A stretch of DNA of 64,000 bases from Malacoraja senta. Lineage: Eukaryota. Positions 8,925 to 64,000 of this stretch are shown in pieces. Position 1 is the stretch's first letter. Every line of letters starts with the position of its first letter. The notes under the pieces were generated by a model that made no database searches, was not told where the DNA came from, and saw nothing but the letters and a program-made list of their open reading frames with translations. The translations under genes were made by a program, and so were the position numbers. The stretch lies in assembly GCA_038087875.1 (NCBI GenBank), contig CM075989.1, positions 22,198,001-22,262,000 on the forward strand, written 5' to 3'.

Positions 8925-11272
8925 CATAGAAACATAGAAAATAGGTGCAGGAGGAGGCCATTTGGCCCTTCGAGCCAGCACCGCCATTCATTCTGATCAT
9001 GGCTGATCATCCACAATCATTAACCTGTGCCTGCCTTCTCCCCATAATCCCTTGATTCCGCTAGCCCCTAGAGCTCTATCTAACTCTCTTTTAAATTCAT
9101 CCAGTGAATTGGCCTCAACTGCCTTCTGTGGCAGAGAATTCCACAAATTCACAACTCTCTGGGTGAAATAGTTTTTTCTCACCTCAGTCTTAAATGGCCT
9201 TCCCTTTATTCTAAGACTGTGGCCCCTGGTTTTGGACTCTCCCATCATTGGGAACATTTTTCCTCCATCTAGCTTGTCCAGTCCTTTTATAATTTTATAT
9301 GTTTCTATAAGATCCCCTCTCATCCTAAATTCCAGTGAATACAACCCCCGTCTTTCCAATCTTTCCTCATATGACAGTCCACCATCCCGGGGATTAACCT
9401 TGTGAGCCTACGCTGCACTCCCGCAATAGCAAGGATGTCCTTCCTCAAAGTAGGAGACCAAAACTGCACACAATACTCCAGATGTGGTCTCACCAGGGCT
9501 CTGTACAACTGCCGAAGGACCTCTTTACTCCTATACTCACATCCTCTCGTTATGAAGGCCAACATGCCATTAGCTTTCTTCACAGTCTGCAGTATCTGCA
9601 TGTTTACTTTCAGTGACTGGTGTACAAGGACACCCAGGTCTCATTGCACTTCCCTTTTTCCTAATCTGACACCATTGAGATAATAATCTGCCAACTTGTT
9701 CTTGCCACCAAAATGGATAACCTCACTTTTATCTACATTATACTGCATCTGCCTTGCATCTGCCCACTCACTCAACCTGTCCAGGTCACCCTGCAACCTC
9801 CTAGCATCATCTTCACAGTACACACTGCCACCCAGCTTTGTGTCATCTGCAAATTTGCTAGTGTTACTTTTAATCCCATCATCTAAATCATTAATATATA
9901 TTGTAAATAGTTGTGGCCCCAGCACCGAGCCTTGCAGCACTCCACTCGCCACTGCCTGCCATTCTGACAGGGAACCATTTATTCCTACTCTTTGTTTCCT
10001 GTCTGCCAACCAATTATCTTTCCATGTCAATACTCTACTCCCAAAACCATGTGCTTTAATTTTGCCCACTAATCTCCTGTGTGGGACCTTATCAAAAGCT
10101 TTCTGAAAGTCTAGATACACTATATCCACTGGCTCTCCTTCATCCATTTTACTTGTCACATCCTCAAAAAATTCCAGAAGATTAGCCAAGCAGGGTTTCC
10201 CCTTCATAAATCCATGCTGACCTGGACCAATCATTTTACTGCTATCCAAATGCGCCCTTATTACTTCTTTAATAATTGACTCCAACATCTTCCCCACCAC
10301 CGATATTAGGCTAACTGGTCTATAAATCCCTGTTTTCTCCCTCGCTCCTTTCTTGAAAAGTGGGATAACATTAGCTACCCTCCAATGCACAGGAACTGAT
10401 CCTGAATCTATAGAACAATGGAAAATGATCACCAATGCATCCACAATTTCGAGAGCCACCTCCTTGTGTACCCTGGAATCCAGACCATCAGGCCCTGGGG
10501 ATTTATCATCCCTCAGCCCCATCAGTCTACCCAATACTATTTCTCGCCTATTGCAAATTTATTTCAGTTCCGCTGTCTCCCTAGATCCTCTGTCCTCTAG
10601 TACATCTGGGAGATTGTTTGTGTCTTCCTTAGTGAAGACAGAACCAAAGTACCTGTTCAACTCTTCTGCCATTTCCTTGTTCCCCATAATAATTTCACCC
10701 GTGTCTGCCTTCAAGGGACCCACATTTGTGTTTACTAATCTTTTTTATCTTAACATAACTAAAGAATCTTTTACTATCCTTTACCTTCTTGGCCAGCTTA
10801 CCCTCGTACCTCATCTTTTCACCCTGTATTGCCTTTTTGTTACCTTCTGTTGTCCTTTGAAAGTTTCCCAATCCTCTGGCTTCCCGCTACTCTTTGCTCT
10901 GTTATACACCTTTTATTTTACTTTTATTTCATCCCTAACTTCCCTTGTCAGCCAGGGTTGATTATTATTCCACTTAGTCTGAAGAAGGGTTTTGGCCCAA
11001 AACGTTGCCTATTTCCTTCACTCCATAGATGCTGCTGCACCCGCTGAGTTTCTCTAGCACTTTTGTCTACCATTACTCCACCTAGAATCTTTCTTCCTCT
11101 TTGGAATGAAATGATCCTGCATCTTCTGGATTATGCCCGGAAATTCCTGCCATTGCTGTTCCACCGTCATTCCTGCTGGGATCCTTTTCCGGTCGACCTT
11201 GGCCAGCTCCTCTCTCATGCCTTCGTTATCCCCTTTGTTCAACTGCAACACTGGCACTTCTGATTTAACCTT
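8925..11272 (-). mobile_element. 5'-truncated CR1 LINE, ORF2 reverse transcriptase pseudogene
   Basis: ORFs 9641-10534 (KSPGPDG, YRPVSL, YLDFQKAFDKVPH, QGSVLGP, FADD), 9320-9601 and 8997-9359 lie in different frames, indicating frameshifts. (TTTCTATG)n tail at ~8925-8940. Interrupted by a PLE insert at 10978-11071. Confidence 0.95.
10978..11071 (+). mobile_element. Short PLE-derived insert with hammerhead-like core, inside CR1
   Basis: CTGAAGAAGGGTTTTGGCCCAAAACGTTG...; flanked by the imperfect duplication ATTATTCCACTTAG / ATTACTCCACCTAG. Confidence 0.75.
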
Positions 11273-12510
11273 CGTTGGGGAGAAAGAAAGCCAGCATAAA
11301 TCTTTCTCTAAAATACTCCATATTGATCACTATGGTCTAGGGTGCATAGACGGAGTGCATCAAATAGTTCCCAGCCAGTCAGTCGCTGTTCTACTGAGGG
11401 GTATAGAGAGGAGAGAGGGGTTGGAGGGGCGAGGGGTTCAGAATAGCACCACCATGGTGATCTCCTAAGGATTGGCGAGGCAACCAGTCATCAAGGGATG
11501 CGGCAGATTTTTTCGCAAGGTTTTGAAAGTAAGGTCGCACGCTGCTATAGTTCATCCCGTGGTGCCGTAGTCCATACATCAGTCCCGAAGCAAGGAATGT
11601 GACATAGTTTTCTCCGTAATCAATTGGCTGAAGCAGCTCCAGATATAGATTTAGAAAATGGGCAATGGTCATGCATCTTAGCGGAGAGGGACATTTAACC
11701 GGCAAGGAGAATGAATTTGTTATCCTGTGATACTGCCAAGATTGGGCTAAAACAGTTCCAGGCGGATTCAGGACTAACTTCTGTGGAAATGGGGCAATGG
11801 GACTGTGATAGCGGGGAGAGCGTTGTACATTGCTAAGCGAATGTTTACAAATCGGCCGCCTGACAATTCATCCAGCATTTTCTCAAATGAAAGTCCAACA
11901 GATTTTTAAACCATTATAATTATCACTGAGACAGATTTTTTTTTTTAACGGTTTGCAGTTCGCATTAACCGGAAATCTGAATGGAATATAATTTAGCTTT
12001 CCTGGAGTTATGTCATTAATATTGAGCCATAAAATGCATGCGATGCTTAGTCCTGTCTCTACTCAATGAAGTCATGACATCAGTTTGATTTATGCTCCTA
12101 TACCAGATCTAAATCAGCAATGACACTCGTTATATTGTTTTAACCTTAGGAGATTGTCTTTTTTTTCCTTGATTAATATTTAATTCATAGTCCAAGCGTT
12201 TTCTGTTACAGTTTAAAAAAATGAATGAAATACTTTGCTATGAAATCAATGGATGTGTATTCAATCCTTGTGAGAAATATATTAATTAAGGAAGAGTATG
12301 ATTATTTTGATACGGATCAGTGGGTAATATTTGCTTGGTCTGGCAATGTTTATTCCCTACCCAAAATGTTTTGGCATTTTTTCATCGTGGAGGGGGTGCG
12401 TTGGGACGAATTGTGCCCCCAAATAAAGAGAGAAATCCAGAACTGCTCAATAACTGTGAAATCACGGGTTTGCCCCTGTTGGCGACCTTATAAACAGCCC
12501 AGGCCGATGG

Positions 12511-12718
12511 AAGGTAGACAAAAATGCTGGAGAAACTCAGTGGGTGAGGCAGCATCTATGGAGCGAAGGAAATAGGCAACGTTTCGGGCCGAAAACCCTG
12601 GGTTTCTGCCCGAAACGTTGCCTATTTCCTTCGCTCCACAGATGCTGCCTCACCCGCTGAGTTTCTCCAGCATTTTTGTCTACCTTCGATTTTCCAGCAT
12701 CTGCAGTTCCTTCTTAAC
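12511..12718. mobile_element. Palindromic PLE terminal element
   Basis: ~88-bp inverted arms centred near 12599, followed by the family 3' end CCAGCATCTGCAGTTCCTTCTTAA. The flanks share CAGCCC..CGATGGAA. Confidence 0.85.
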
Positions 12719-12765
12719 CAGCCCGATGGAACACTGGATTCGAATGGTTATTCCATTAATCTATA

Positions 12766-13085
12766 GGTAGACACAAAATGCTGGAGTAACTCAGCTGGAC
12801 AGGCGGCATCTCTGGATAGAAGGAATTTTAGACGTTTCGTGTCGAGACCCTTCTTCAGACTGAGTCCGGGGAGAGGGAAGTAAGTAAGTAAGTAAGTACG
12901 TAAGTAAGTAAGTAAGTTTATTGGCCAAGTATTCACATACAAGGAATTTGCCTTGGTGCTCCGCCCACAAGTAACAACATGACATACATTGACAGTTACG
13001 AATGGCTCAGAGGAAACGAGAGATATGGAAGGGTAATGGTGCGAAAACGAGAGATCAAAGGGGGCGACGGTCAAGGAAAATGCAG
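12766..13085 (-). mobile_element. PLE 3' fragment with a nested LINE tail ((TTAC)n) at ~12879-13010
   Basis: Terminal repeat plus hammerhead core (12831-12858, minus); AAGT tandem run and AATAAA on minus. Confidence 0.7.
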
Positions 13086-13949: not shown

Positions 13950-14057
13950 CTTATTCCTTTTGCTTCGCTCCAGAGATACTCCCTGACCGGCTGAGTTACT
14001 CCGGCATTTTGTGTCTATTTTCGGTGTAAACCAGCATCTGCAATTCCTTCCTATACA
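13950..14057 (+). mobile_element. PLE terminal-repeat fragment
   Basis: GCTGAGTTACTCCGGCATTTTGTGTC...CCAGCATCTGCAATTCCTTCCTATAC. Confidence 0.7.
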
Positions 14058-14370
14058 AACTTCTAAAGGTCGACGCTGCCTCAAATGATGGACCAAAAAC
14101 TCAACTGATTGTTTGAGAAGCTTTTGATGCGTTATATCTTTAAGCAAGGTACTTAACCTGAGCAGATAGGATGTGTCTATACACTTCAGAATTCACTCTT
14201 GTGAGGCTCGTTGAACTGCTGTATTGGTGGGCATGGATGCCCCAATGTTTGGCAGTTCAAGGGCAGGTTTGCCTTGGCTGACACGTGAACTAAATTACAG
14301 TGAAGCTCTTGGGATCGTGTAATGAAGTGGGAAGAACATTGTTACTGGGCTGCCACGTGTTCATTATGTA

Positions 14371-16033
14371 CAGTGCCCTCCATAATGTTTGGGACAATGA
14401 CCTATCATTTATTTAATTGCCTCTGTATTCCACAATTTGAGATTTGTAATAGAAAAAAATCACATGTGGTTAAAGTGCACATTGTCAGATTTTAATAAAG
14501 GTCATTTTTATACATTTTGGTTTCACCATGTAGAAATTTCAGCTGTGTTAATACATAGTTCCCCCCCCCCCCCCCCCCCCCATTTCAGGGCACCATAAAG
14601 TTTGGGACACATGGCTTCACGGGTGTTTGCAATTGCTCAGGTGTGTTTAATTGCCTCCTTACTGCAGATACACGCGAGCTCTCAGCACCTAGTCTTTCCT
14701 CCAGTCTTTCCATCACCTTTGGAAACTTTTATTGCTGTTTATCAACGTGAGGACCAAAGTTGTGCCAATGAAAGTCAAAGAAGCCATTACGAGACTGAAA
14801 AACAAGAATAAAACTGTTAGAGACATCAGCCAAACCATCGGCTTACCAAAATCAACTGTTTGGAACACCATTAAGAAGAAAGAGAGCACTGGTGAGCTTA
14901 CTAATCGCAAAGGGACTGGCAGGCCAAGGAAGACCTCCACAGCTGATGACAGAATTCTCTCTATAATAAAGAAAAATCCCCAAACACCTGTCCGACTGAT
15001 CAGAAGCACTCTTCAGGTGTCAGTTGTGGATTTGTCAATGACCACTGTCCACAGAAGACTTCATGAACAGAAATACAGAGGCTACACTGCAAGATGCCAA
15101 CCACTGGTTAGCCGCAAAAAATAGGATGGCCAGGTTACAGTTTGCGAATAAATACTTAGAAGTGCGACCACAGTTCTGGAAAAAGGTCTCGTAGACAGAT
15201 GAGACGAAGATTAACTTATATCAGAGTGATGGCAAGAGCAAAGTATGGAGGAGAGAAGGAACTGCCCAAGATCCAAAGCATACCACCTCATCTGTGAAAC
15301 ACGGTGGTGGGGGAATTATGTCATGGACATGTATGGCTGCTGAAGGTACTGGCTCACTTATCTTCATTGATGATACAACTGCTGATGGAGTAGCATAATG
15401 AATTCTGAAGTGTATAGACACATTCTATCTGCTCAGGTTCAACAAATGCCTCAAAACTCATTGGCTGGTGGTTCAATCTACAGCAAGACAATGATCCCAA
15501 ACATATTGCTAAAGCAACAAAGGAGTTTGTCAAAGCTAAAAAATGGTCAATTCGTGAGTGGCCAAGTCAATCACCCGATCTGAACCCAATTGAGCATACC
15601 TTTTATATGCTGAAGAAAAAACTGAAGGGACTAGCCCCCAAAACAAGTACAAGCTAAAGATGGCTGCAATACAGGCCTGGCAGGGCATCACCAGAGAAGA
15701 CACCCAGCAACTGGTATTGTCCATGAATCGCAGACTTCAAGCAGTCATTGCAAGCAAAGGATATGCAACAAAATACTAAACATGACTACTTTCATTTACA
15801 TTACATTGCTGTGTCCCAAACATTATGGTATCCTGAAATGGGGGGACTATGTCTCAACATTGCTGTAATTTCTACATGGTGAAACCAAAATGTATAAAAA
15901 TGACCTTTATTAAAATCTGACAAGGTGCACTTTAACCACATGTGATTTTTTTCTATTACAAATCTCAAATAATGGAGTACAGAGGCAAATCCATAAATGA
16001 TGGGTCTTTGTCCCAAACATTATGGGGCCACTG
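14371..16033 (+). mobile_element. Full-length Tc1-family (DD34E) DNA transposon, IR/DR type
   Basis: Ends CAGTG...CACTG flanked by TA on both sides. ITRs are ~220-240 bp (14371-~14610 and ~15811-16033), each with two copies of the ATAATGTTTGGGACA-type repeat. Confidence 0.97.
14747..15779 (+). pseudogene. Tc1 transposase pseudogene
   Basis: HTH region with GRPRKT, (W>stop)TDETK, VKHGGG, QQDNDPKH, WPSQSPDLNPIE (34 residues between D and E), ending KGYATKY-stop. The start codon appears mutated to GTG; there is an in-frame TAG and about four frameshifts. Confidence 0.95.
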
Positions 16034-18168
16034 TATTACTGGCAGTTGTTACAAGCGCTGTTACCAGGAACTAAATCATTTCAAATTCCATTAATAGTTA
16101 TCTCGTGTATTCAATGTTCCATTGAAACCCTTATTGAACATACGAATTGGCTGCTTAAATACCAATCTTATTATACACGTTATGACAATTGGGTGCTATT
16201 TGGAAATGTTCCCACCATTTCAGTTGCAATTTCAAAGTAATTTAACTGCTGATTTCAAATAGTATTATGAAACAAAGTGGAACAATTCTGATTTTAGTTT
16301 CCTCGTCTTCTGCAATATGGGAAACTTAATGGTCCTCTTTCTCTCCCTTTATAACTTCTGCAATGCAATTTTCATTTGATATGTGTCAAATCCTGATGCT
16401 TCCTTTAACTTTTACATTTACCACAAAGCAAATTAGTTCCCTAATGGGGCATACGGCGTTCTCCTGCGTTAGAAATAAATAACTTCGTTGGGTTCCTAAC
16501 TGGTAGCACAAGGAGCTTAAATATGTTTTACGAAGCAATGTAACAATTTTCTTGGAAACTTGAATGATGAAGGGTGGTATGTCTGTAATAGAACAGTGGG
16601 GAATGAAAGAGGGGTGTCTGCGAACGTTTGAGTCGTTTATTTTGTAGCCACCAATGTATTATCGTGAGAAAATACGCAGAATTTAATTTGCGGCTTTTCT
16701 AAAGAGGATATGTGTAAAATAGAATATGAGAAAAATCACCTAAGCCACATTTTAAAATAAATATCGTCCATTCTAACCTAAAATTGATCGTTTTGGTCAG
16801 CATAATTGGGGTAGTTAATAACTTTAATAACTGTAGTAATAATCATGAAGTTCGCTTTCCAGCAAATCTATTCCATTATCTGATAGGGAAAAACTTTCGC
16901 TTGACACTTCAACATCCATGCTCTGAAGTTGACTGCCTTAAATGTGTATTCCATTATTACGACGGCGCGTTCGCTTTTAGTAATAGCCTTCGATGGTTTC
17001 ATTTTTTATCACAGTTCGTTCAATATAGGAAAACATATTTCTTATTGGAAAACTAATATGCTTTTTGCAACCTTCTTTCCACATAAAGCACGCAACAATT
17101 GAAAAAAAGAAGTGTTTCGAGATATTAATTTCATTAACTTACTAATTTTCCTAACGAACGTATTTATTGAAAGCAGCATTAAATAAATATTCAAGTGTTT
17201 GATTTGTTTTTCTGGTATTTATTTTGACTGCTTACAGAGTAATACATTGAAATCAAATGCTACCGTGCGACTCTAACCATTACAAATCTTCAAAGATACG
17301 GTTAAAACGATATTTTACACAGTTGAAAATATGTTTTTTTGCTTCAAAAATGCAGCAATTAATATTTTTTCCTCCTTTCTATGCTTCTTTCTGCAATTCA
17401 TACAATGAGTCGGGTTCGGTGTTTACGGAACAATGTAAAAGATTAATACGACATTTGAGCAAATAAATCTTCGGGGACAATACCGTTCTAACATTCTAGA
17501 TGATATAAGTTTATTCGTGTTGGCCTGTGCATATCAATGGCACGAATTTACAATTACATTTAGTTATTGGATTCTTTGCTTTTGGAAACGCATAACCTTC
17601 GTTTATCAATGCTGATCTTTACGGTCACTAACTGCGGGATTGCACCCTTAATATAATATATAAATTGTCAGTGCATTGTTTCACGAGAAAACAGAATATT
17701 CACTTAAATGTTATTTCTATGAAAGAATAGAATCAGTTAATGTATCATTATTATTTACTATATTTCTTACCCTCAAAAATTATATTCGCAAATGAATGAC
17801 ATTTTGAACTTCATTTCCTTACAATTTCAAATATAGTAGAATTTATTTCTGGCTGCCTAATGACTTAAATATGTGCATTGTTCATTTATGTTACTAAGAT
17901 TATTTTGATTTTGTTTTGTATCCGTCTAGATAATTTCAGAAGCACTTTGGAATGATGGAATCTAACCATTCCTTGGATTCCTAGCCGTTTGCCGTAGTGT
18001 ATATAGCTGGTAGATTGGTCAGTTTCATTAATCTGCCTTAATAGTCCTTTCAGAGATGTAAAGAGAAGCACTTTAGTGTTTTGGACCAATCTTCTGTGAG
18101 GCTGAAGGGGAAAATATGACAGCACGGGAGAATGGATTGATGGCATTTTGGATGGCGAGTCTCTGTCT

Positions 18169-18883
<715 letters not shown>

Positions 18884-21424
18884 TGCCATTCCCTCCACAG
18901 TGTCGAATGTGTCATGCTTTGTCACATCTTGTGTGTTTTTACTGAACATTTGAATAAAAGCATCTGCCAGGTATTCCTGACACTGTGGGCGGAATTCGCT
19001 GCCATCCACAAAGAGTTTTCCAGTTCCATTTGCATAAGGTCGCAGCAGAGCTTCTGATGGAAGTTCAGCGGCATCCTTGTCTCTTAGCAACAATATGCAC
19101 TTTTGGTCCTTGCATTAAATTGACGGATCCCTTTTTATTTCTTTCACATGGTGCTACGCAATGAAATGTCACCCTCAAACCTGTGTCTGTCACTAGTAGG
19201 TCAACTTTTTTCTTCCTTTAAGTCCAATTAGAAGAGGAGGCTATTCACTGAGTCCAAAATGATTCGTCTTATTTGTTAATTAATATTAATAACATTTCCA
19301 GTATTAATGGACGGAGCTGCATAAACATTTGAGAGATAAGGACCAAATTACTGGCACCTGCACTACAATACATTTTTGGAGTCAGTAATAGGATGCTGAG
19401 ATTGGAGAGCAGTTTTGGGTCATATTCTCCACCCATTTATTTGAGATAGGATTGAGCGCTGCTCCGAGAACTGAATGTGCTGAGAAAATTAGTGACAACC
19501 TCTGTGTGTCGATGGGAATTTCTGACATAATACAGCTGCTGAGAACTGGTGTTAATGGAGGGTCAACTTAGGACAATGGTATCCATCACTTGCCTCGTAG
19601 CTCCCCTGTCATCGCGGCCACTTTTGACTGCTCTATCACCCAGATTTTAGTTATTCAATTACTTGGGATTTTCCTCTCTGAACACCCAGTTGCTAATTTT
19701 GTGTGTTTCGCGTCAATAACGCGGTTAAACTGTCTTTCGTTATACTTCTAAAAAAAATCATCTCAAACGCGTGTTCCGGCTAAATAACAAAACCGGCCAC
19801 GTTCAGAATAATGCAGAGATTATGCTAACCGATGCACCTGTCCAACAAGTTCCAGGTATACCGGTGTACTTTGCAGGCAATAACTTTTACCAAAAACAAT
19901 TCTATTGAAAATAAAGTAATTTTAGTGTTTAATTTAAAGGAAATATTTCAGAAATTATGAATAGAATTTGCGATAATTCTTTTGTAATATATGTCGTTAG
20001 GTAATATTAAAAGTAGATAGATAGATCATGTTAATGGTGTATATCACACAACACAAACTCATTTATCTGTATTCTACACTAAACGTATATATTAAATTAG
20101 ACACCCTCCGTTTTTTTCCAAACAGGAAATATAAAATCTGAGTTGAAATTCATAATCAACAATTGAACCTTTTCCTCTCGACCCAAAAAGGTGGTAAACA
20201 TTTATTTTAAAAAATATCTTAAATGTTGCGATGCTGCCAAGTATTTTATTATGCTTATCTGGTCATTTATTAAGCTCGATTTCGAGAATAATATATATTT
20301 CTTGAAACCTAAAGCTAAATCTGTCTTTGTCAATGCAATGTTATCAGTCTGTAGGTTCTCAAATCGTTTTGAGTAATACTCAAATGAAACCGTATTATAT
20401 GGGGCATAACACCTGTTAACCGCTGCAAGTTCAGCCTGCGATCTTGCACAGTAAAAACAGAACTAATCTTGGCAGGAAAAGTTAGTTGCCTGTTGCATCA
20501 GTTATCATCAGCGACGAGACGCTTGCTGTCTGGTCCTGCGCATCCACTTGCGGCCTTTCTATCTATCATTCTATCTAATTTATGGACCATCTTCTGTGAC
20601 AATGGGCCGTTTTTCATGCAGACTTTCACTGGAGCTTTGGCGTTTCGTCCTGTCTCTGTATTTTCAACCTAGTAGCTCACATGCCCTGTAATGTATATTC
20701 AAGATAAATATACCGGAAATTTAGCTTCCTGACAACAGCTGGGTTAAAAGTCAAATGGGCTCTGTTTAATAATTCACGTGTCATATTTCTTCTGTTTTGT
20801 CAAGTTTGCCAAAGAAGATGAAACGACCCGAGAGAGATGTAGTAGACTTGGTCATATGGTCTGTGGCTTCCCGATATTCAGATCCATTATAGAGTTTACA
20901 GATGCTAATTGCTAAAGTACGAAGTAAGATCTATTTATTTTCCTTTCGATCTATGCTTTGGGCCATTGAGTAGTTATTCCAACTGCCTCTTTGTCCTCTG
21001 ACATTTCAGATTTGAACAGATTTGTTCCCGTTTAATGTAACTACTACCAAAGGCCGTGAATGATTTACGATATATATATTTACTGGGTAATATAAATAAA
21101 ATTCATAGATAATACTTAAAGAATGTATAATACTTGAACATAATACAAATTCCTCCTGAAACCTGAAGATAATTGCTGAAGCAAATTTCCCGTTGATTTC
21201 TTTAAAACTTAACGAGGACACAGCATAGGTAGAAATAGCTCTGAGATTTAAAATGTTCTCAACACCCTTGTGTATTTTGTGTCTAAACCATCTGTTTGGT
21301 GCCTGCGACTTTTACTATTAATCAATACATGAACTGGCGCAGGCTATAAGTTACAATACTCAATTCGAGTGTGTTTTGAATAATCTTCTAATGGCCCATT
21401 AATGTTATGGTTCTGCGCAGATTA

Positions 21425-21624
21425 NNNNNNNNNNNNNNNNNNNNNNNNNNNNNNNNNNNNNNNNNNNNNNNNNNNNNNNNNNNNNNNNNNNNNNNNNNNN
21501 NNNNNNNNNNNNNNNNNNNNNNNNNNNNNNNNNNNNNNNNNNNNNNNNNNNNNNNNNNNNNNNNNNNNNNNNNNNNNNNNNNNNNNNNNNNNNNNNNNNN
21601 NNNNNNNNNNNNNNNNNNNNNNNN
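21425..21624. other. Assembly gap (200 N)
   Basis: Run of exactly 200 N, a fixed-size scaffolding gap. Confidence 0.99.
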
Positions 21625-23438: not shown

Positions 23439-23666
23439 GGTAGACAAAAAATGCTGGAGAAACTCAGCGGGTGATCCAGCATCTGTTGAGATAAGGAATA
23501 GGCAATGTTTCGGGTCGAGGCCCTTCTTAAGACTGTCTGAAGAAGGGCCTTGACCTGAAACGTCGCCTATTTCTTCTCACCATAGATGCTGCCTCACCCG
23601 CTGAGTTTCTCCAGCATTTTTTGTCTACCTACGATTTTTCCAGCATCTGCAGTTCTTTCTTAAACA
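23439..23666. mobile_element. Palindromic PLE-derived element with 15-bp TSD
   Basis: Inverted arms centred at ~23534; TSD TATTATTTAGTTTAG at 23424-23438 and 23667-23681. Confidence 0.9.
23537..23564 (+). ncRNA. Minimal hammerhead ribozyme-like motif
   Basis: CTGAAGA-A-GGGCCTTGACCT-GAAAC-GTC: CUGANGA box, stem II, GAAA box and GUC triplet. Confidence 0.6.
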
Positions 23667-23671: not shown

Positions 23672-25322
23672 TTTAGTTTAGTTTAGTTTATTGTCACGTG
23701 TACCGAAGTACAGTGAAAAGCTTGTGTTGTGTGCTAATCAGTCAGCGGAAAGACTATACATGATTAAAAAGGAGCCATCCACAGTGTACATAGATACATA
23801 CATAGATACATAGAAAATAGGTGCAGGAGTAGGCCATTCGGCCCTTCGAGCCTGCACCGCCATTCAATATGATCATGGCTGATCATCGAACTCAGTATCC
23901 CGTACCTGCCTTCTCTCCATACCCCCTGATCCCTTTAGCCACAAGGGCCACATCTAACTCCCTCTTAAATATAGCCAATGAACTGGCGTCAACTACCCTC
24001 TGTGGCAGAGAGTTCCAGAGATTCACCACTCTCTGTGTGAAAAAGTTTTTCCTCATCTCGGTCTTAAAGGATTTCCCCCTTATCCTTAAGCTGTGACCCC
24101 TTGTCCTGGACTTCCCCAACATCGGGAACAATCTTCCTGCATCTAGCCTGTCCAACCCCATAAGAATTTTGTACGTTTCTATAAGATCCCCTCTCAATCT
24201 CCTAAATTCTAGCGAGTATAAGCCAAGTCTATCCAGTCTTTCTTCATATGAAAGTCCTGACATCCCAGGAATCAGTCTGGTGAACCTTCTCTGCACTCCC
24301 TCTATGGCTATAATGTCCTTCCTCAGATTTGGAGACCAAAACTGTACGCAATACTCCAGGTGTGGTCTCACCAAGACCCTGTACAACTGCAGTAGAACCT
24401 CCCTGCTCCTATACTCAAATCCTCTTGCTATGAAGGCCAACATACCATTCGCTTTCTTCACTGCCTGCTGCACCTGCATGCCTACTTTCAATGACTGGTG
24501 TACCATGACACCCAGGTCTCGCTGCATCTCCCCATTTCCTAATCGGCCACCATTTAGATAATAGTCTGCCTTCCCGTTTTTGCCACCAAAGTGGATAACC
24601 TCACATTTATCCACATTATACTGCATCTGCCAAACATTTGCCCACTCCCCCAGCCTATCCAAGTCACCTTGCAGTCTCCTAGCATCCTCCTCACAGCTAA
24701 CACTGCCCCCCAGCTTAGTGTCATCCGCAAACTTGGAGATGTTGCTTTCAATTCCCTTGTCCAGATCATTAATATAAATTGTAAATAGCTGGGGTCCCAG
24801 CACTGAGCCTTGCGGTACCCCACTAGTCACTGCCTGCCATTGTGAAAAGGACCCGTTTACTCCTACTCTTTGCTTCCTGTTTGCCAGCCAGTTCTCTATC
24901 CACATCAATACTGAACCCCCAATACCGTGTGATTTAAGCTTGTATCCTAATCTCTTATGTGGTACCTTGTCGAAAGCCTTCTGAAAGTCCAGATACAACA
25001 CATCCACTGGTTCTCCCCTATCCACTCTACTAGTTACATCCTCGAAAAATTCTATAAGATTCGTCAGACACGATTTACCTTTCGTAAATCCATGCTGACT
25101 TTGTCCAATGATTTCACCACTTTCCAAATGTGTACCAATGCAGGATAAAGGGAATAACATTTAGTGGAAGATAAAGTCCAGTGAAGACCGATTAAAGATA
25201 GCCTGAGGGTCTCCAATGAGGCAGATAGTAGCTCAGGACTGCTCTCTAGTTGTTGGGAGGATGGGTCAGTTGTTTGATAACAGCTGGGAAGAAATTGTCC
25301 CTGAATCTGGAGGTGTGTGTTT
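23672..25322 (-). mobile_element. Rex1/Babar-like LINE 3' end (parts 23672-23789 and 25130-25322) split by a CR1 insertion
   Basis: The same tail is uninterrupted at 42015-42230 (…AGTGTACATATACAGGATAAAGGG). Here it is broken at GTGTAC, duplicated at 23784-23789 and 25130-25135. Confidence 0.75.
23790..25131 (-). mobile_element. 5'-truncated CR1 LINE with uninterrupted RT frame
   Basis: ORF 23892-25131 (~413 codons, no stop): QHGF, YLDFQKAFDKVPH, GVPQGSVLGP, FADD, RPHLEYCVQFWSP, RTRGHS. TATCTATG-type tail. Confidence 0.97.
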
Positions 25323-45708: not shown

Positions 45709-45939
45709 GCACTCCTTCTTACACATGCCTATATATTTACCGTTGGTAAGGTTATAGTCAAACGGCTTTAATAATTTTGTTGAATGGATGACCTAACATG
45801 TTCTTGCATGTTGGTGAAGCTCCATTGAAACTGACGGAGATTTTCCATTATACAAGTGACATGAGAACCTTGTCTATCCACAAGGTAAGCATGGATGTAC
45901 TATTTCCAGATCTTCTGGTATCACATCTGTCAATCTGTT

Positions 45940-48029: not shown

Positions 48030-48453
48030 TCACTGTCAAAGTGAGGCCCAATGCACATTGGAGGAACAGCACCTCATGTTTCACTTGGGCAGCGTACACC
48101 CCAGCGGTATGAATATTGACTTCTCTAACTTTACGTAACCCTTGCTTTTCCTCTCTCTCCATCCCTCCCCATCCAAGTTCTCCCACCAGTCTGACTGTCC
48201 TCCTGATTACGTTTTATCTTTGTATACCTCGTTGTTACCTACCGCTAGCTAACAATGATCTATTCTACATGTTCCTTGAATTTCGTCCTCTTGGATCTCT
48301 TGTTTTCACACCATACTCTTCCATATTTCTGTGTGTGTTCCCTCTCCCCTGACTCTCAGTCTAAAGAAGGGTCTCGACCTGAAACGTCACCCATTCCTTC
48401 TATCCAGAGATGCTGCCTGCCCCGCTGAGTTACTCCGGCATTTTGTGTCTATC
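48030..48453 (+). mobile_element. PLE 3' portion: GIY-YIG C-terminus, 3' UTR and hammerhead-bearing terminal repeat
   Basis: Encodes LEEQHLMFHLGSVHPSGMNIDFSN-stop; CTAAAGAAGGGTCTCGACCTGAAACGTC at 48361. Confidence 0.85.
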
Positions 48454-48454
48454 T

Positions 48455-48752
48455 AGAGGAATCAAGAACCAGAGGACGTAGATTTAAGGTGACTAGGGAA
48501 AGATCTAATAGGAACCTGAAGGATAACTTTTTTACACAAAGGGTGGTGGGTGTATGGAACGAGCTGCCGGAGGGGGTAGTGAAGGCAGGTATTATCACAA
48601 CGCTTCAGAAATATTTAGACAGGTACATGGATAGGACAGGTTTAGAGGGATATGGGCCAAATGCAGGCAGGGTGGACTAGTGTAGATGGGACCTGTTAGG
48701 CTGTGTGGGCAAGTTGGGCTGAAGGGTCTGTTTCCACGCTTTATGACTCTAT
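48455..48752 (+). mobile_element. CR1 (HER1-like) 3' fragment
   Basis: FFTQRVVGVWNELPE...GYGPNAG; 3' end shared with HE1. Confidence 0.9.
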
Positions 48753-50061: not shown

Positions 50062-50183
50062 AAGAAGGGTTTCGGCCCGAAACGTTGCCTATTTCCTTCG
50101 CTCCATAGATGCTGCTGCACCCGCTGAGTTTCTCCAGCATTTTTGTGTACCTTTGATTTTCCAGCATCTGCAGTTCCTTCTTA
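50062..50183 (+). mobile_element. Short PLE-derived insert with 15-bp flanking duplication
   Basis: AACATTTATAGATTG at 50047-50061 and 50184-50198; core TGAAGAAGGGTTTCGGCCCGAAACGTT. Confidence 0.9.
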
Positions 50184-52108
50184 AACATTTATAGATTGTT
50201 GTCTTGACATCAAGCTACTAAACTCCCTATCCCTTCCTGTAGTCCATTTCATCATTGTTTGAGGTTTCAACCTCACAGTGGTGTCAACTCCAAACTTCAA
50301 TGGAATTAATATATTTAAATGGCATCAACTGCTAAGAATGCAGGTCCTATGCAGGTATCTATCGCATATTTACTACGCAATGATTTATTTCCATAAAATT
50401 GTGGCATCCTTAAACATCAACATGTTTCTTGTGAAGGTGACGTAAATACATGTTTAGCAAACGTGCAGGAAGGAACTGCAGATGCGAGTTTATACCAAAG
50501 ATAGACAAAAAATAGTGGAGTAACAGGCAGCATCTGTGGAGAAAAAGAATAGGTGATGTGTTGCATCCTTTAAATCTTGTTCTGAAATTCTACTCAAAGG
50601 TAGTTTGCACTGAGAGCCCACAATGCCTAATGACCGGACTCCATGCAAATTTCAAGAAATAATATAATTGGATAACCATTAGAATAGCATATTGGCTTTT
50701 CTAATAAGGTTAAAATCCATTTTCCTTGCACTGGTAGTAATATTATTGACCTTAAGTGCTCAGGTCCAATGAATTACAAAGTAGAGGAGAACAATAACTT
50801 GTTAGAGCATGATATATATTTTCGTAGATTATTGTGATAAGGTCTGTATGTCGCGACCCATTGGCGTCAAACTAATCCGGCAATATTCAGCACTACATTG
50901 TTCTTAATCAATAACTAATTATCAAAGTATGGCTGAGGTAGCAGTTCTTTCAGAATTCCTTGTTAAAAATGGCTTTTGGCAGTGAGCAGGAAGAAAGGTC
51001 GCCTCATTGACATCGTCACAAGCCTTTCAACATCTACTGCCCTGTCACATTGAATTACTGTTACTAACTAATTGATATAAATTTAAACAGAAGAATGCTT
51101 GTTACTGTGGGATGTCATAATATCATCTTCGGTAAGTGTGCATAAGGACAAGTACACTGTAGATTCCCACTCTAACAGATGTAAATTAGGTTTGGCACAG
51201 CAAGAACATGAATATGATTAAAAATAAATCCAAAGGAATTTAGAAGAGCATATTGTTTTCTTCTGACAATTCCAGGTACACTTCTATTGAAAATCCTCAA
51301 GAGTTATTATCAGGTTTCATTTCATTTCACTGAGCATGATTTAGAATTCAGTTGGACCATTAATTGGGTGCTTTGCAAAGTAGTAACAACAAATAACTAT
51401 TTAGTGGTGCTTGAAAGTATTCATGAATAAAATCCGCTGGCACGCGTCGGTGTATCTGTAAACAAGATGAGAAAGAATAAGGGTCTCAATAGCAGAAATT
51501 GAATGGTACAATTCAAAAATTGGGTTCCATTCATGAAAATGGTTCCAAATTACTAATGGTGAAAGGCATACTCAATTCAGAGCTCTTTCCATTCAAAATG
51601 ACTTTAGCTAGATTCGCAAAGGAAAGGTACTTTTGGTCGTAAAAGTAAACTTACTTCAGTCCACTGTACATGATCTTATAGCTTGTCCTGCGATCCTGGC
51701 TATAAATATGTCCTTCACATGATGTGACACATTGATTTTTGATTGTTAATTATCATGTCGTTTCATTCATGGTTCCACAAATTTCTCATATCAATATAGT
51801 GAACCCTGGAAAAAGTTTATTGTTCATAGGGTTAGCACTGTTGTAGAGTCATCTGCATTTAATTTTGTTATTTTAAGGCAAAGTTGTAATTTTGTATAAT
51901 TTTTGAATGTCTGAAAACCTTTATAAAAACATGGTGTTATAACTTAGAGTTTCGTGAGTAAGGTGAAGCTGTTTCCTGACCAAATTAAACGCAGCAACCA
52001 TGAAATTATGCAATATATAATTATTTTGAATTGTAGAATAATTGGATTTCATACAAAGGTATAGACATGATTGCTGCCAAACACAAATTAATTTGAACAA
52101 AATAAATG

Positions 52109-53291: not shown

Positions 53292-53295
53292 AACC

Positions 53296-53458: not shown

Positions 53459-53494
<36 letters not shown>
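53296..53494 (+). mobile_element. Rex1/Babar-like LINE 3' fragment ending in (TG)n(TA)n
   Basis: ACGTCCAGGTTCAGGAACAGCTTCTTCCC (RFRNSFFP motif). Confidence 0.7.
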
Positions 53495-53495
<1 letters not shown>

Positions 53496-53868
53496 CACAG
53501 GCTCGGCGATCGTTTCACTGAACACCTCCGTTCAGTCCGTCTTAGCCTACCTGATTCCCGGTGGCTCAGCATTTCAACTCCCATTCCCAATCCCAATCTG
53601 ACCTTTCTGTCCTGGGCCTCCTCCATTGTCACAGTGAGGGCACAGAGCACATTGGAGGAACAGCACCTCATATTTCGCTTAGGTAGTTTACACCCCAGCG
53701 GTATGAACATTGACTTCTCTAACCAGATAGCGCTTGCTTTCCCTCTCTCACCATCCCCACCCCCTTCCCAGTTTTCCCACCAGTCTTACTGTCTCTGACT
53801 ACATTCTATCTTTGTCCCACCCCCTCCCCTGACATCAGTCCAAAGAAGGGTCTCGACCCAAAACGTAT
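53495..53868 (+). mobile_element. PLE GIY-YIG endonuclease fragment plus 3' UTR, bounded by (TA)n
   Basis: HRLGDRFTEHLRSV...LEEQHLIFRLGSLHPSGMNIDFSN; degenerate hammerhead at ~53840. Confidence 0.85.
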
Positions 53869-53909
53869 ATATATATATATATATCATATCCTGGTATATA
53901 TATATTTAT

Positions 53910-54148: not shown

Positions 54149-54391
54149 GTATTGGAAAAACATTCACTTTTCCAAAAGACATGTTTTATTGACTACCTGA
54201 CTTAATGTACAATATTTCTGGAAATGTTAATCGAAATAGAAATACATGAAACCATGTAATATCTAATCATATAGGAACTCAGAGGGTCAGTCAGCAACTG
54301 GGGAGGGAATGGAGAGGTGACGTTATTTGAGTGGGGACACTTTAGCATGAAGAATGGTCCCAACCTGAAATGTGAATAAGGGTCCCAACTC

Positions 54392-54645
54392 GAAACGAAA
54401 CGATACAATAGAACTTTATTTATCCCAGGAGGGAAATTGGTCTGCCAACGGTCATAAAACACAACAGGATAGATGAAACATGAAATTAAAGTGACGAGTG
54501 GAAAGTCCAGGATTTGGGATGTGCAAAGATTGGAGAGGGAGGGGTGGGAGGGTGGGGAAGGGAAGTCAGTCTACCCCACGACAGAAGGGGGAGCAGTTGT
54601 ACAGTTTGATAGCCACAGGGATAAAGGATCTCCTGTGGCGTTCTG
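54392..54645 (-). mobile_element. LINE 3' tail nested in a PLE remnant
   Basis: AATAAA and an (TTTCG)n-like tail on minus. PLE terminal sequence lies on both sides (54280-54390, 54655-54765), with ACTCGAAAC repeated at both junctions. Confidence 0.6.
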
Positions 54646-55216
54646 TCCTACTCGAAACTCGAAACGTTGCCTACCCATTCCCTCCCCAGATACTGCCTGA
54701 CATATTGAATTCCTCCAGCACTTAGTGTTTCGCTGATGATACCAACAGCGGCAGTCTCCTGTGTCTCTAATATATAATCATTCTCAAAATAAATTCTTTT
54801 GTTTAAAAGGAATGAGTGTTCATGTTCGGGCAGAGCGATGAATATGCGAGTGATTTGGCAGTACCATTTGTTATTTGTATTTCAATTATTTAAAAAAACT
54901 TACACTAAGCATAATTATGAGGTCACCTCTCCACTTCTGCAGCATTTGCCACAAATTTGTTATATTGCACCACGGTGCTCATTAGGATAAATTTTGACAG
55001 AATCACAGAGGGGATTGTTTTTCCCCACAGTGTATCTAACACGAAAGAACTCTTTAGTCAAGTATGGCAAGGTCATTAAGAATCCTTTAACATGTGGCTT
55101 GATTCCAAGAATGAAAACTTGTCCTTAGAATTCGGATGTTAGAAGTTGCAACATGTAAAACACATAACTTTTCTAAGTTTTTCTGTGAGGAAAAAAGGCA
55201 AACAGCTTAGACAAAA

Positions 55217-55705
55217 GGAGGATGAGGGGTGATCTTGTTAAGCTGTATAAAATCATGAGAGGAATAGATCAGGTAGATGCTCAGAGTCTCTTGCCCAGAG
55301 TAGGTGAATCAAGGACCAGAGGACATAGGTTTAAAGTAATGGGGAAAATAATGAATAGAAATCTGAGGGGTAACTTTTTCACGCAATGGGTGGTGGGTGT
55401 ATGGAACGAGCTGCCAGAGATAGTTGAGGCAAGGACTATCCCAACGTTTAAGAAACAGTAAGACAGGCACATGACTTATCCCTAACCAGACTGAAGAAGG
55501 GTCTCGACCCGAAACTTCACCCATTCCTTCTCTTCAGAGATGCTGCTTGTCCCGCTGAGTTACTCCAGTTTTTTGTGTCTATCTTCGGTTTTAACCAGCA
55601 TCTGCAGTTCCTTCCAACACAGGTATATGGATACAACAGGTTTGGAGGGATATGGACCATACGTGGGCAGAAGGGGCTGTTTCCACGCTGTATCACTCTA
55701 TGATT
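55217..55705 (+). mobile_element. CR1 (HER1-like) 3' fragment split by a PLE insert (55472-55620)
   Basis: RGDLVKLYKIMRG...FFTQWVVGVWNELP; insert flanked by ACAGGCACATG / ACAGGTATATG. Confidence 0.88.
55491..55518 (+). ncRNA. Minimal hammerhead ribozyme-like motif
   Basis: CTGAAGA-A-GGGT(CTCG)ACCC-GAAAC-TTC. Confidence 0.55.
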
Positions 55706-59370: not shown

Positions 59371-59371
59371 A

Positions 59372-59827: not shown

Positions 59828-62434
59828 TAACCCATTGAACGAGATTGGGTCTAACTCTTTGCTCCTGAGGGACCAAAGATGAAAAACATGAAAAAAAAGT
59901 TACTTTGAACCAACGTAAGTTGCCGAAGCAATATAAAATGGGCAAAAAGTACATCCTAAACTGCAGATAAATATTTTGCTGCTCACTTTGGGTTTGTTGT
60001 CAATTCATTTCCCTTTAACGAGAAACACATATACAATAAATTGGCTGTTCAATGGAAAATCCCTTTTAACTATTCACTAATTGAGAGAAGCTGTTGCTGC
60101 TGTGATTATTCCAGCAATCAATGGTTTAGAAGGAAATTCCCCTCAGCTGCTCTAATAGAAGTGATGAACCAATTCAAATAAACAAATGAGGTCCTGTGCT
60201 CAAATTACAGAAGGGAGGAATTTGACGTGACTGTTTTAAAAGCGCTGGGAAGCTAACACCTTTACTATCACAATTGCACTTCTTCCACTGAAGCGGAAGG
60301 CTGATTGATAAACGAATGTCATCATTTGCTTTGCGTTCAAGATGCCAAAGTTGAGAAAAGTTCCTACCACTCGGAAATGGGACAGCACTTCTATGATTCG
60401 CAAGAGGGCCGATCGGTTGTTGATAGCTGGAGGTGCTCCTAGCATATGTAGGTAAGTGTACTGATCAGCTCAAAATATGTCGCAGCCTTCGGCAATCTGT
60501 GCAGGTGGTCGATTGCCTCAGTTAAAGAGGTTAACCCAGAGTGAACACACGGGCTCCAAGTCTGAATAGGGGAAGCACCCAGGGAGCCTGTAACAATAAG
60601 CAAATAATGAAACAAACCTGACCATGGTTAAATACATAAAGTGATGAAGATTCACGGATCTCTGGCATTGAACAAGGGAAATAAAGGAACTTGCCCAGCG
60701 AGAGCGCAGCTGTCATTAGGCTTGTGTTAGTTCAGGGGAAGGTATGTTAGGCTGGCTGCCATTTTGATTAACTCAGATCTAACCTCTCAATTCACATAAA
60801 GAGGATCAAAAGACACATACTTTAATGCACATCCTGCTGTTAGTTTGTAATGGGCTTCAAGTGAAAGACAATATAGAACACCAAATAGTTTTGGACAAAA
60901 AATAGTAAAGTAATTGACACATTTTCAATGATTTTAGAAAGGCAGTGCCTTAGATGAAAATGTAAGTGCTCATTGTAAACTTGCTTGCAAATGTATTAAA
61001 GAAAATAATCCTTCCTATGTTTTTCACATTTAGCAGAACTGACACTGGGCTATCTCGGTATTTCTTTTACAGAGTGCTTTCAAAAAATGGGAGCGTACCA
61101 CATCCACTTTCATCTGCTTTGGGCTTCAAAGTAGTTTCACATTATCTACAAAGTAATGAAAGCCTTTCATTATCACAAATGGGGCTGCCTGTGTTCTTGA
61201 ATGGTACTCTACGGACCAGCAATGGACAAATCTCTTTTGCCTCTGCCTGCCTGCTTTGTCTAACTCCAAAGATGTTGAGGTGCTTTTGAAGAAAGCCATT
61301 CCGTGAGCAAGTCTGAGTTTGGGGATAATAGCAAAAGCCGTAACAGCTGGATAAATGAGGATATCGTGAAGGATACTGAGAGTAGAGCAAGTGAGAGCAG
61401 AAGTGGTCAGTAACAGTAAGTATTTAGTGAGGGTAAGTGAAAAGACTAAATGGACTAAACACTTAAACCCCTAAACTAAAAAAAACAAACATCTTACTTG
61501 AGTACTGCTGCAAATAGCATTTGACTCATCTTCTTGCAGGAAACGTTACATAACACATCACACCCTGTTAAGCTTTCCCTTTTCAAGATGACCTTTCTAT
61601 TGCATACAAAAATGTTGATTAATAAGCCATGTGCAAAAAACATGCCATTAAATTTCAGTTAATATAAAATATATTAGTCGAGTAATTTTCTATATGGAAC
61701 TTATTAGTAAACCCTCTGTGGGTATTAAACCAGTCGGTAAAACTTCAGTGCTTGCACAACCGCAGTTTATCTGAAAGCCGCGAATAACTTTCCAATGTAA
61801 CTGGGATTTGCACCTTCTGTGAAATATGCTCTCCATAACTAGTCCTCGTGTAACATGTTGGCAAACGCCAGGGTGTGTGAAGCATGTTCGTAAATCCTCG
61901 CTGTATGTTAAACACCAGCGTGCAATAAAATGTCACCACCTTCACTACCTAACGGATCCTAAGCATATACAAACCTTGTTAGATAATTCCCAGTATAAAT
62001 AACACATGCTATTCAGTGCTCAGTGAATATAAAATCTGGTAATAAATCTGCCAGGCATATTTTTACAGATGCTGATAAATCATTTGCATCAGTAAAATAA
62101 ATGAGTACAGTCGTTCCTTAATCTACATGAAAGAGGCAAATAGATCCCCAGCAAGTAAATATTTTGCAATGGGATTAAATAGTTCTGTGTTTCTGTGCAT
62201 CACATAATCGATCTTCAATAAAACAATGTAATGTACAAAGACCATGAATTTTGTTCAGGGTCCTGCATGCATCTCATGCACAACTGCATGGATGATCAAG
62301 ACCACTCGTTCAATTGCATCCGTCTCCTGACGGCTCCAGGTCCTAATTTGCACTCTTGTGTGTGACTGCACTGTCCACAGGTTGTACATGAAGAAGCTTT
62401 CACGTTTGAGAAGCCAACCTCTATATGATTTCAT

Positions 62435-62528
62435 GGACACAAAGTGCTGGAGTAAATCAACGGGTCAGGCAGCATCTCTTGAGAACATGGATCGCTGATG
62501 TTTCAGGTCGGGACCCTTCTTCAGACTG
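62435..62528 (-). mobile_element. PLE terminal-repeat fragment
   Basis: GACACAAAGTGCTGGAG...GGGACCCTTCTTCAGAC. Confidence 0.75.
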
Positions 62529-62852
62529 ATGTAAAGGACATTAGGAAGTCGCAAACTGGCATTGAAATCTGGACTAAGTAAATCTCCTTAAGGTAGGCAC
62601 ATACTCCTCTCCTTCAAGTGCCACTTTATGCCTGACTCGCTCGGTTCATCCACCAATTTGACTGCATGTTATTTACTAAACCCACAGTAAATTCTCCAAT
62701 CATCTCCCATCTGACCTGCCCTTTCAACCCATCTCTGAAAGCGACCACTCTCTATAACTGTTGATGAAACACTCCTCCCACCACACGACTGATCAATTAG
62801 GTGGATTGGGTAAATTTGATGCTCTCGAAGACAAGTGTTTGCAACTTCTACG

Positions 62853-63205
62853 AGTCAAGTCAAGTCTAGAGAGTTTATTGTCATGTGTCCCAGATAGGAC
62901 AATGACATGCTTGCTTGCTGCAGCACAACAGAATATTATAGGCATAAATACAGAACAGATCAGTGTGTCCATATACCATAGAGTATATATATATATACAC
63001 ACATAAATATACAGATAAAGTGCAATAGGCTGTTAAAGTTCAGAGTTTGTTTGATGTTGTGTTTAATAGTCTGATGGCTGTGGGGATGTAGCTGTTCCTG
63101 AACCTGGATGTTGCAGATTTCAGGTCCTGTACCTTCTGCCTGATGGCAGCGGAGAGATGAATGAGTGGTCAGGATGGTGTGGGTCCTTGATGACGTTGGC
63201 AGCCT
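62853..63205 (-). mobile_element. Rex1/Babar-like LINE 3' end
   Basis: KKAANVIKDPHHPDHSFISPLPSGRRYRT, plus AATAAA and a (GACTT)n tail. Confidence 0.8.
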
Positions 63206-63659
63206 TTTTGAGAAAGTCTTTTTGAGCCTTATTTCGGGAAGTTCCTACTAAGAATCGGGTTTCTGCCTTTGATACTGGGTCATAGGAATCTGAAATTTTC
63301 CAGCGATGCTGCCTGACCCACTGAGTTTCTCCAGCACTTTGTGTCATTTTTTGTAAAGCATTTCCATCTGGAGGGATATTGATTGTATCTCAACTAATCC
63401 AGTGAACCTTCTCTGATTTGTCTTCAAAGCAGGTACATCCTCCTAAAAATACTTTCAGTCAGTTGAAGGGCTCCAACCCAAAATGTCATCCATCCTTTTT
63501 CTCCAGAGATGCTGCCTGACCTGTTGAGTTACTCCAGCACTTGTGTCTACATCCACCTGAATATGGAGATCAATAGCGGAGGTAGTATTCAAGGGAATGT
63601 TTCCACCAGCATTGTGTATTGTTGTAACAAAACCTCCCTATTTTTATCGCTGTACTGCT

Positions 63660-64000
63660 TCATAAATTTATACTGTAAGTGACAGGAGCAGAATTAGGGC
63701 ACTCAGCCCCATCAAGTCTACTCCGCCATTCAATCATGGCTGATCTATCTCTCCCTTCTAACCCCATTCTCCTGCCTTCTCCCAATAACTCCTGACACCT
63801 GTACTAATCAAGAATCTAAGGTAGACAAAAAGCTGGAGAAACTCAGCGTGTGAGGCAGCATCTATGGAGTGAAGGAATGGGTGACGTTTCGACTCGAGAC
63901 CCTTCTTCAGACTGAATCAAGAATCTATCTATCTCTGCCTTAAAAATATTATTTAACTTGGCCTCCACTGTGATCTGTGGCAATGAATTTCACAGATTCA
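63660..64000 (-). mobile_element. CR1 3' end (runs off the window) with a PLE insert at 63819-63914
   Basis: CR1 3' UTR on minus; insert flanked by the 13-bp TSD AATCAAGAATCTA (63806-63818, 63915-63927). Confidence 0.88.

Follow-up and report, generated by a model that had tools for sequence, protein, structure and literature searches.

What are the hammerhead ribozyme motifs scattered through a stretch of skate DNA, and how did they come to be there? The question is raised by 64,000 nucleotides of the Malacoraja senta genome (GenBank assembly GCA_038087875.1, contig CM075989.1, positions 22,198,001 to 22,262,000), hereafter the window, in which a minimal hammerhead motif recurs on both strands. 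An initial annotation recognized the motif family, attributed it to a distinct non-autonomous, retrozyme-like family derived from Penelope-like elements (PLEs), and suggested that host intronic RNA might self-cleave; it overlooked copies linked to an open reading frame (ORF), target-site duplications (TSDs), a one-sided tail and inverted pairs. With these features included, the copies are read here as dead insertions of the pseudo-long terminal repeat (pLTR) of endonuclease-positive, Neptune-type PLEs, a reading given a probability of roughly 80%.

The motif and its census

Positions are numbered with C3 of the CUGA box as +1, which places C17, the cut site, at +28. Allowing up to three substitutions, the motif occurs 18 times in the window and not once in each of five dinucleotide shuffles; with up to six edits the count is 26, against 0, 2, 0, 0 and 2 in five shuffles. 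A profile seeded with 10 copies and then iterated with nhmmer extends the similarity to an element of 100-135 bp with 36 matches (19 plus, 17 minus), here called arms, that amount to about 28-29 insertion events. More than 15 copies had been claimed from the sequence, and all 14 sites named (7 on each strand) were recovered within 1-3 nt. The stem II loop variants CTCG, TTCG and CCCG are present, and in its top pair stem II has U-A in some copies and U-G in others. The motif is indeed a PLE-type minimal type I hammerhead, with an extra base after A9, G10.1-C11.1 and a palindromic CG replacing stem III (compare PMC4209133).

The Rfam scan that had been proposed as a check gave 12 matches at E≤1 over the window and none to hammerhead families. 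The microRNA matches among them are hairpins of inverted pairs and microsatellites. Pattern scans found no motif in viral contigs and, in metagenome contigs, none and then one match (locus L001), where the rest of the element is absent and the match is put down to chance.

Link to a Penelope-like reading frame

Evidence for the origin of the module comes from copies that retain more than the motif. Upstream of the copies at 48361 and 53840, a pyrimidine-rich 3' untranslated region (UTR) leads into an ORF end within the same TSD. ORF end, UTR and motif are contiguous at 48031-48453 and 53496-53864, so that the pLTR directly follows a GIY-YIG ORF. In tblastn comparisons, cartilaginous-fish proteins match 53496-53723, 48031-48132 and 33695-33892 (best E values 2e-13, 4e-10 and 7e-17, respectively). 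The proposed Penelope derivation and very high copy number are borne out.

The clade is suggested by protein relatives. A 76-residue ORF fragment from the window has 2 relatives among 63 candidates and 16 in a full protein scan; of 10 looked up, 4 come from Leucoraja, Hypanus, Rhincodon or unnamed assembly proteins of the same type. The relatives carry the start of a GIY-YIG domain and a C-x3/4-C-x2-C linker, this zinc-finger-like Cys motif being found in P0008, P0009, P0010, P0018 and P0020; the window fragments end short of the linker. Reverse transcriptase (RT)-like motifs can be picked out by eye in P0004. The Cys linker motif marks Neptune and Nematis (PMC8557442). Among RT matches in the window there is no PLE RT, those at 9644-10558 and 23895-25160 belonging to another repeat.

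Fragments of PLE endonuclease turn up in public skate and stingray gene models (P0003, P0008 and P0009, named "uncharacterized" or "mucin-2 isoform"), apparently through contamination of the annotation by repeats. P0003 itself looks like a chimeric gene model of PLE and long interspersed nuclear element (LINE) RT sequence.

Anatomy of the insertion units

The order of the element is ORF end, pyrimidine-rich 3' UTR, TCAGT, minimal hammerhead core, about 65 nt, and an optional 35-nt tail. The module common to the copies comprises TCAGT, CUGAAGA, the extra A, a 4-bp stem II, GAAA, CG, U, C or U, and then the stretch of about 65 nt. Arms end at their 3' side in two classes about 35 nt apart: 18 of 36 at +91 to +107 and 13, with the tail, at +120 to +133, while 5 end earlier. 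In inverted units the tail is on exactly one arm in nine of nine cases (seven head-to-head pairs plus two units whose inverted piece is tail alone), counting 44.8/45.1k as one unit and 54341-54373 plus 54655-54754 as one split arm. The window holds no tandem array of the 100-135 bp unit; copies are solo or head-to-head.

Flanking direct repeats indicate that these are insertions. A TSD score of at least 8 was reached by 13 of 29 units, compared with 7 of 222 mismatched controls. Several TSDs are perfect 11-15-mers, and inverted-copy units at 12.6k, 23.5k, 27.3k and 45.7k have TSDs of 12-15 bp, the pairs at 12.6k and 23.5k each being flanked by a single one.

The tail can pair over 8 bp with a AGATGCTG segment 30 nt past the cut site, both in the 55491 copy and in all tail-bearing arms, and a small hairpin lies just before the short 3' end. 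Both helices are 95-97% paired, with no covariation. Judged by these predicted pairings, they are a candidate recognition structure between two priming sites.

The copies are as follows; arms cited as "nhmmer" are delimited by that search.

3868-4050, both strands: head-to-head unit; the minus arm spans C3 (3963) to the short end, and the plus arm has a late start and a tail; flanking repeat of only 6 bp, at chance level.
5937-6011, minus: old degenerate copy that has lost its 3' part (nhmmer match).
7039-7480, minus: old copy (the one at 7109); its pyrimidine-rich 3' UTR is long, and the final ORF codons can be made out by eye; the ORF end comes from translation only, with no tblastn match.
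10978-11071, plus: solo copy of subfamily B, short end; 14-bp TSD 10964-10977/11072-11085, 2 mismatches.
12513-12717, both strands: inverted pair, both arms beginning in stem II, plus arm tailed; one 14-bp TSD 12499-12512/12718-12731.
12764-12880, minus: subfamily A copy; further 3' UTR upstream, past a secondary insertion with a (TTAC)n tail.
13956-14058, plus: tail-bearing copy that begins close to +30, immediately beyond the cut site, within a small fold-back junction.
23439-23666, both strands: inverted pair joined at the bases right before the CUGA box, plus arm tailed; perfect 15-bp TSD 23424-23438/23667-23681.
26095-26310, both strands: inverted pair, minus arm tailed (nhmmer).
27209-27325, minus: short-ended copy after an inverted tail-only piece; perfect 15-bp TSD 27194-27208/27326-27340.
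30445-30541, minus: solo copy; 15-bp TSD, 2 mismatches.
32148-32370, both strands: inverted pair of subfamily C, minus arm tailed (nhmmer).
32488-32620, plus: solo tail-bearing copy with an insertion in its core (pattern and nhmmer).
33695-33892, minus: end of a PLE GIY-YIG ORF containing an in-frame stop, no adjoining pLTR found (the tblastn match at 7e-17).
36136-36230, plus: solo copy of subfamily C (nhmmer).
44714-45150, both strands: two head-to-head arms (C3 44847 minus, 45060 plus), one tailed; spacer of about 170 bp unique in the window; 14-bp outer repeat, 2 mismatches.
45616-45727, minus: short-ended copy after an inverted tail piece; 12-bp TSD.
47358-47465, minus: tail-bearing copy beginning in the GAAA box (nhmmer).
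48033-48453, plus: single insertion of GIY-YIG ORF end (48031-48135), 3' UTR, hammerhead (C3 48361, C17 48388) and short end; 11-bp TSD.
50062-50183, plus: least diverged subfamily B copy, tailed; perfect 15-bp TSD 50047-50061/50184-50198.
50463-50568, minus: tail-bearing copy from near +24 (nhmmer).
53498-53864, plus: a (TA)n tract holds, as an insertion, a frameshifted ORF end followed by 3' UTR and the core of the hammerhead; 22-bp flanking duplication (region 53476-53886); stops 1-2 bases before the scissile bond.
54264-54754, both strands: degenerate inverted pair; plus arm with a 25-bp duplication, apparently split by a later insertion (about 54398-54654).
55487-55620, plus: subfamily A copy, tailed (nhmmer).
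62431-62531, minus: solo copy of subfamily C (nhmmer).
63299-63547, plus: two separate degenerate arms, 63299-63373 and 63447-63547 (nhmmer).
63819-63914, minus: solo copy from -4, inside another repeat; perfect 13-bp TSD 63806-63818/63915-63927.

The unit at 44714-45150 is probably a single insertion, its spacer possibly sequence captured at that time. The plus arm of 54264-54754 appears split on the evidence of a repeated 11-mer. A second 3' end at a cut site (54372) was considered there and set aside, as the arm seems to resume at 54655 beyond the later insertion.

Abundance in three species

Genome-wide statements come from contigs of four runs aligned on 47900-48480. Three large runs, of 156,665, 162,467 and 178,799 aligned contigs, represent three species; run X24, with 30 contigs, was left uninterpreted. 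Summed depth over the pLTR is 48.6, 16.8 and 48.1 million, compared with 27-74, 8-19 and 19-21 over the unique flank, values that give an order of magnitude and no copy number. Depth over the pLTR is about 9-23 times that over the ORF end. This suggests very roughly 10^6 arms per genome in the three species, with which the 0.56 arms/kb of the window agrees when extrapolated to a skate assembly of 2.2 Gb (a size given in PMC10115646). The flank-to-element junction of the 48033-48453 insertion is common to runs X3 and X21, from two other species, and the X21 flank differs at about 10 of 132 listed positions; this insertion is therefore old. The letters of the tail are the top 3' loose end in all four runs.

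Each of the three large runs contains head-to-tail joints of 90-97 bp, in, for example, at least 14, 16 and 5 and at least 12, 8 and 8 contigs among the joints listed. Such dimers are what a separate non-autonomous retrozyme would yield, in which a unit of about 100 nt is transcribed from tandem arrays, cut by its hammerhead into monomers, circularized and reinserted by the PLE enzyme. Short arms far exceed ORF ends, which would also fit, and retrozymes derived from pLTRs have been reported, with presence in one chondrichthyan (bioRxiv 10.64898/2026.07.22.740005). However, the joints are not uniform, and those listed account for at least some tens of the 157,000-179,000 aligned contigs. The window lacks an array of the unit, whose boundaries lie at about -3 and +95 or +130, neither at C17 nor permuted. 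The ribozyme is the minimal PLE form with a stem I of 2-3 bp rather than the canonical type I of retrozymes (PMC7229834), and the same module sits on ORF-bearing copies. The distinct retrozyme family first proposed is not supported; the sparse dimers keep the proposal above zero, at a level that is best called very unlikely.

Where the copies begin

The one odd feature of these copies is that most begin shortly ahead of the ribozyme and not at the cut. By hand curation, 23 of 35 arms have 5' ends within -10 to +10, with 6 further downstream and 6 further upstream, or 0.064 ends per nt in this hotspot against 0.004 and 0.005 elsewhere, the interval having been picked after the data were seen. 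An automated pass, which errs where a partner arm mimics UTR, places 19 of 36 ends at -7 to +9 and 1 at +27 to +31, near the cut site. Genome-wide, the top 5' loose ends with low-agreement, AT-rich letters are at -3, -2 and +4; a further peak at 48403 proved to be a subfamily break. The joints listed in the three runs, both head-to-tail and opposite-strand, return mostly to -3/-2 (48358/48359), which argues that the templates were not cut at C17. The position of C17 (48388) is not among the best 6 loose ends per run, with 1969 others outside those, and so provides no test.

TCAGT fits the initiator consensus, a weak motif. The PLE promoters and start sites described in PMC2377424 and PMC8557442 lie within the pLTR. 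Tentatively, and at somewhat less than even odds, the template RNA may begin at the A of TCAGT (-3), an initiator-like position suggested by DNA ends. The fuller proposal is rather doubtful: that an initiator 3 bases before the hammerhead core lets an element retrotranspose the 5' tip of its own mRNA as a fixed-length mini-insertion, with neither a separate non-autonomous element nor ribozyme cleavage. A splice acceptor at CAG|T was considered as another source of the boundary and rejected, as TSD-bounded copies have target DNA upstream and not a shared exon.

The same pile-up could arise within a PLE origin if the RT stalls or switches strands at a structure, such as the UTR pyrimidine run paired with the purine run after CUGA or the palindrome of the box, with no start site involved. 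Predicted folds of UTR-retaining copies pair the pyrimidine run with AGAAGGG, inverted pairs join at palindromic spots in the box or stem II, palindromes have been reported at pLTR 5' ends in rotifer PLEs (PMC3846280), and some ends lie at -4 to -7. On the other hand, the hotspot is common to subfamilies with different UTRs and to solo copies that need no fold-back, and the joints listed lie mostly at -3/-2, as expected from a physical template end. Stalling is a serious possibility, at less than even odds.

Several observations weigh against the pLTR reading or the start site proposed with it. The clade assignment depends on relatives of one frameshifted 76-residue fragment, in which Pfam finds nothing; P0005 and P0006, among its top phmmer matches, are unrelated repeat proteins; and no full-length element was seen. 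Above-chance TSDs are lacking in 16 of 29 units, and head-to-tail dimers of about 96 bp exist genome-wide, as a retrozyme-like element would yield. At the 5' side, the ends were curated by hand within that chosen ±10 interval, they span -7 to +9 with some at -4, wider than a single start site, and a loose-end peak at 48356 (-5) is partly an alignment break from another subfamily's UTR. Finally, the 53840 copy ends next to the scissile bond, which may reflect priming on cleaved RNA or a later deletion in this one case.

Constraint and decay of the hammerhead core

Three subfamilies, A, B and C (8, 7 and 9 copies), diverge on average by 10, 8 and 16% from their own majority sequences, all of which retain CUGANGA, GAAA, NUH, the extra base, G10.1-C11.1 and the palindromic 15.2-16.2 pair, H17 being U in subfamily B. 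The majorities differ from one another at 0 of 13 core and palindrome columns versus 16 of 65 downstream columns (one-sided p=0.038), and their sole difference in stem II preserves pairing. These values point to constraint and hence to a core that mattered in the source elements.

The genomic copies are decayed. None of the 22 core-holding copies combines both boxes, a 4-bp stem II, the CG palindrome and UH, and the palindrome has 13 mismatches in 48. Stem I has 2 bp in subfamilies A and B and 3 bp in C, and stem II has 4 bp; a longer stem I occurs only in the single copy at 44847 and in no subfamily majority. The earlier caveats about mutated copies and a short stem I thus apply with greater force, stem I having at most 2-3 contiguous bp. 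A dimer fold of the hammerhead can be drawn at -6 to -8.5 kcal/mol, but it lies 12-22 kcal/mol above the cofold minimum, in a nearest-neighbor model that ignores tertiary contacts.

Might selection nonetheless be maintaining many copies as ribozymes that still cleave host transcripts? Both boxes and UH survive in 8 of 22, and mismatches outside CpG are at 11 of 213 positions in the core and 52 of 583 just downstream, a difference that is not significant (p=0.10), the scored copies having been picked by their core. Against activity, no copy is intact, stem I lacks even a single pair in 9 of 22, two-sided changes at 2 of 20 pairs are not above shuffles, and the strands are balanced at 19:17. A search of 168 frames (34 + 134) against Pfam, which omitted 33 of 178 candidate frames and from which short exons would escape, found transposon domains only and no host exon. 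In vitro, monomers of metazoan minimal hammerheads show no activity (PMC4209133), and the Anolis hammerhead needs its protein (PMC11167929). Cleavage of host RNA is unsupported because 0 of 22 scored copies are intact, and the competing folds and the frame scan likewise speak against the self-cleaving intronic RNA suggested initially; continuing activity is highly improbable. The hammerhead of the source elements was probably a weak, dimer- and protein-dependent ribozyme, and the genomic copies are passengers.

A possible route of amplification

By analogy with Anolis Poseidon (PMC11167929), the RT-endonuclease would make staggered cuts in both target strands and prime synthesis at two positions inside the RNA, which in this element lie about +95 and +130 from C3. 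A head-to-head pair would result when both strands are primed, and a solo copy when one is. The template would be uncleaved RNA, because copies span the cut site. If transcription starts at -3, an enzyme primed in the first pLTR of the mRNA would run out of template at the 5' end after only 100-135 nt, and longer, randomly truncated copies would come from priming in the last pLTR; the roughly tenfold excess of short arms over ORF ends would then be accounted for. The inserted copies then decay.

Should this start-site model be true, amplification on the scale of short interspersed elements would have left each genome with something like a million remnants of the hammerhead core, the start site would leave the ribozyme a stem I of only 2-3 bp, and in rare copies like 53840 priming on cleaved RNA could have left its mark, as genomic evidence of in vivo activity.

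Other repeats in the window

A Tc1/mariner-type relic at 14369-16035 has inverted ends of about 240 bp with 86% identity and matches to HTH_Tnp_Tc3_2 and DDE_3. The regions 8921-10558 and 23794-25160 hold two LINE-like RT fragments (RVT_1, E about 1e-25 to 1e-28) that are related to each other and not to the PLE module. An AT-rich, self-similar sequence of about 610 bp at 34249-34858 has a long predicted hairpin and resembles a miniature inverted-repeat transposable element. A 725-bp (TC)n microsatellite occupies 18160-18884, and 21425-21624 is an assembly gap of 200 N.

Comparison with known systems

As a class the arrangement is already published, from the minimal hammerheads of PLE pLTRs to copies that are truncated or inverted and to the tail. 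A literature search, mostly of titles and abstract openings and with few subscription papers, returned no hammerheads in skate PLEs and no 5' hotspot at the motif. The value of the present family lies in sample size: hundreds of thousands of dated junctions could test points of the PLE cycle that are still open, namely where the template RNA starts, whether both priming sites are used per dimer (as the nine one-sided tails hint) and whether cleaved RNA is copied. Dead pLTR stubs will dominate any count of ribozymes in cartilaginous fish that relies on motifs.

Minimal hammerheads have been described in the pLTRs of fish Neptune, Poseidon and Xena elements, mostly as dispersed singles ascribed to truncated PLEs (Cervera and De la Pena 2014, PMC4209133). 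The skate motif shares with that set the type I topology, the extra base between 9 and 10.1, G10.1-C11.1 and the palindromic 15.2-16.2 pair, along with mostly dispersed single motifs and opposite-strand pairs, which are 100-700 bp apart in the published set. Its stem I of 2-3 bp is shorter than the 4-5 bp of Schistosoma and resembles the 2-bp helix I of Drosophila virilis Penelope, whereas stem II has 4 bp rather than the 7-8 of the PLE hammerheads compared. The density of 36 arms in 64 kb is far above the 4,000-9,000 motifs of coelacanth and Xenopus, although those pass a descriptor and these are decayed arms.

Metazoan non-LTR retrozymes are tandem repeats, mostly of 150-450 bp, that carry type I ribozymes of the canonical form and have circular RNAs (PMC7229834; bioRxiv 10.64898/2026.07.22.740005). 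The skate copies are likewise short, non-coding, hammerhead-bearing and pLTR-related, with many dispersed monomers. They differ in having no array in the window, a minimal ribozyme that is intact in none and is without the canonical 6-bp helix I and loop-loop contact, and ends set by priming sites.

Other parallels are found among endonuclease-positive PLEs, whose insertion unit shows 5' truncation, an adjacent inverted pLTR and a one-sided tail of 30-40 bp (PMC8557442, PMC3846280). The units described here show all of these features together with TSDs, and their relatives have the C-terminal GIY-YIG and Cys linker of Neptune and Nematis. In contrast to those units, most consist of the pLTR alone, their 5' ends are piled in a 20-nt zone, and their TSDs are 11-15 bp rather than the 8-10 bp of the rotifer examples. 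For the Anolis carolinensis Poseidon element (PAc), both strands are cut and extended, two internal priming sites define the tail, the template is uncleaved RNA and the hammerhead requires protein in order to cleave (Frangieh et al. 2024, PMC11167929). PAc belongs to a different clade, and its ORF starts at stem II, where the skate copies have no ATG. The skate DNA suggests the same features of two internal priming sites, extension of both strands, uncleaved template and AT-rich targets.

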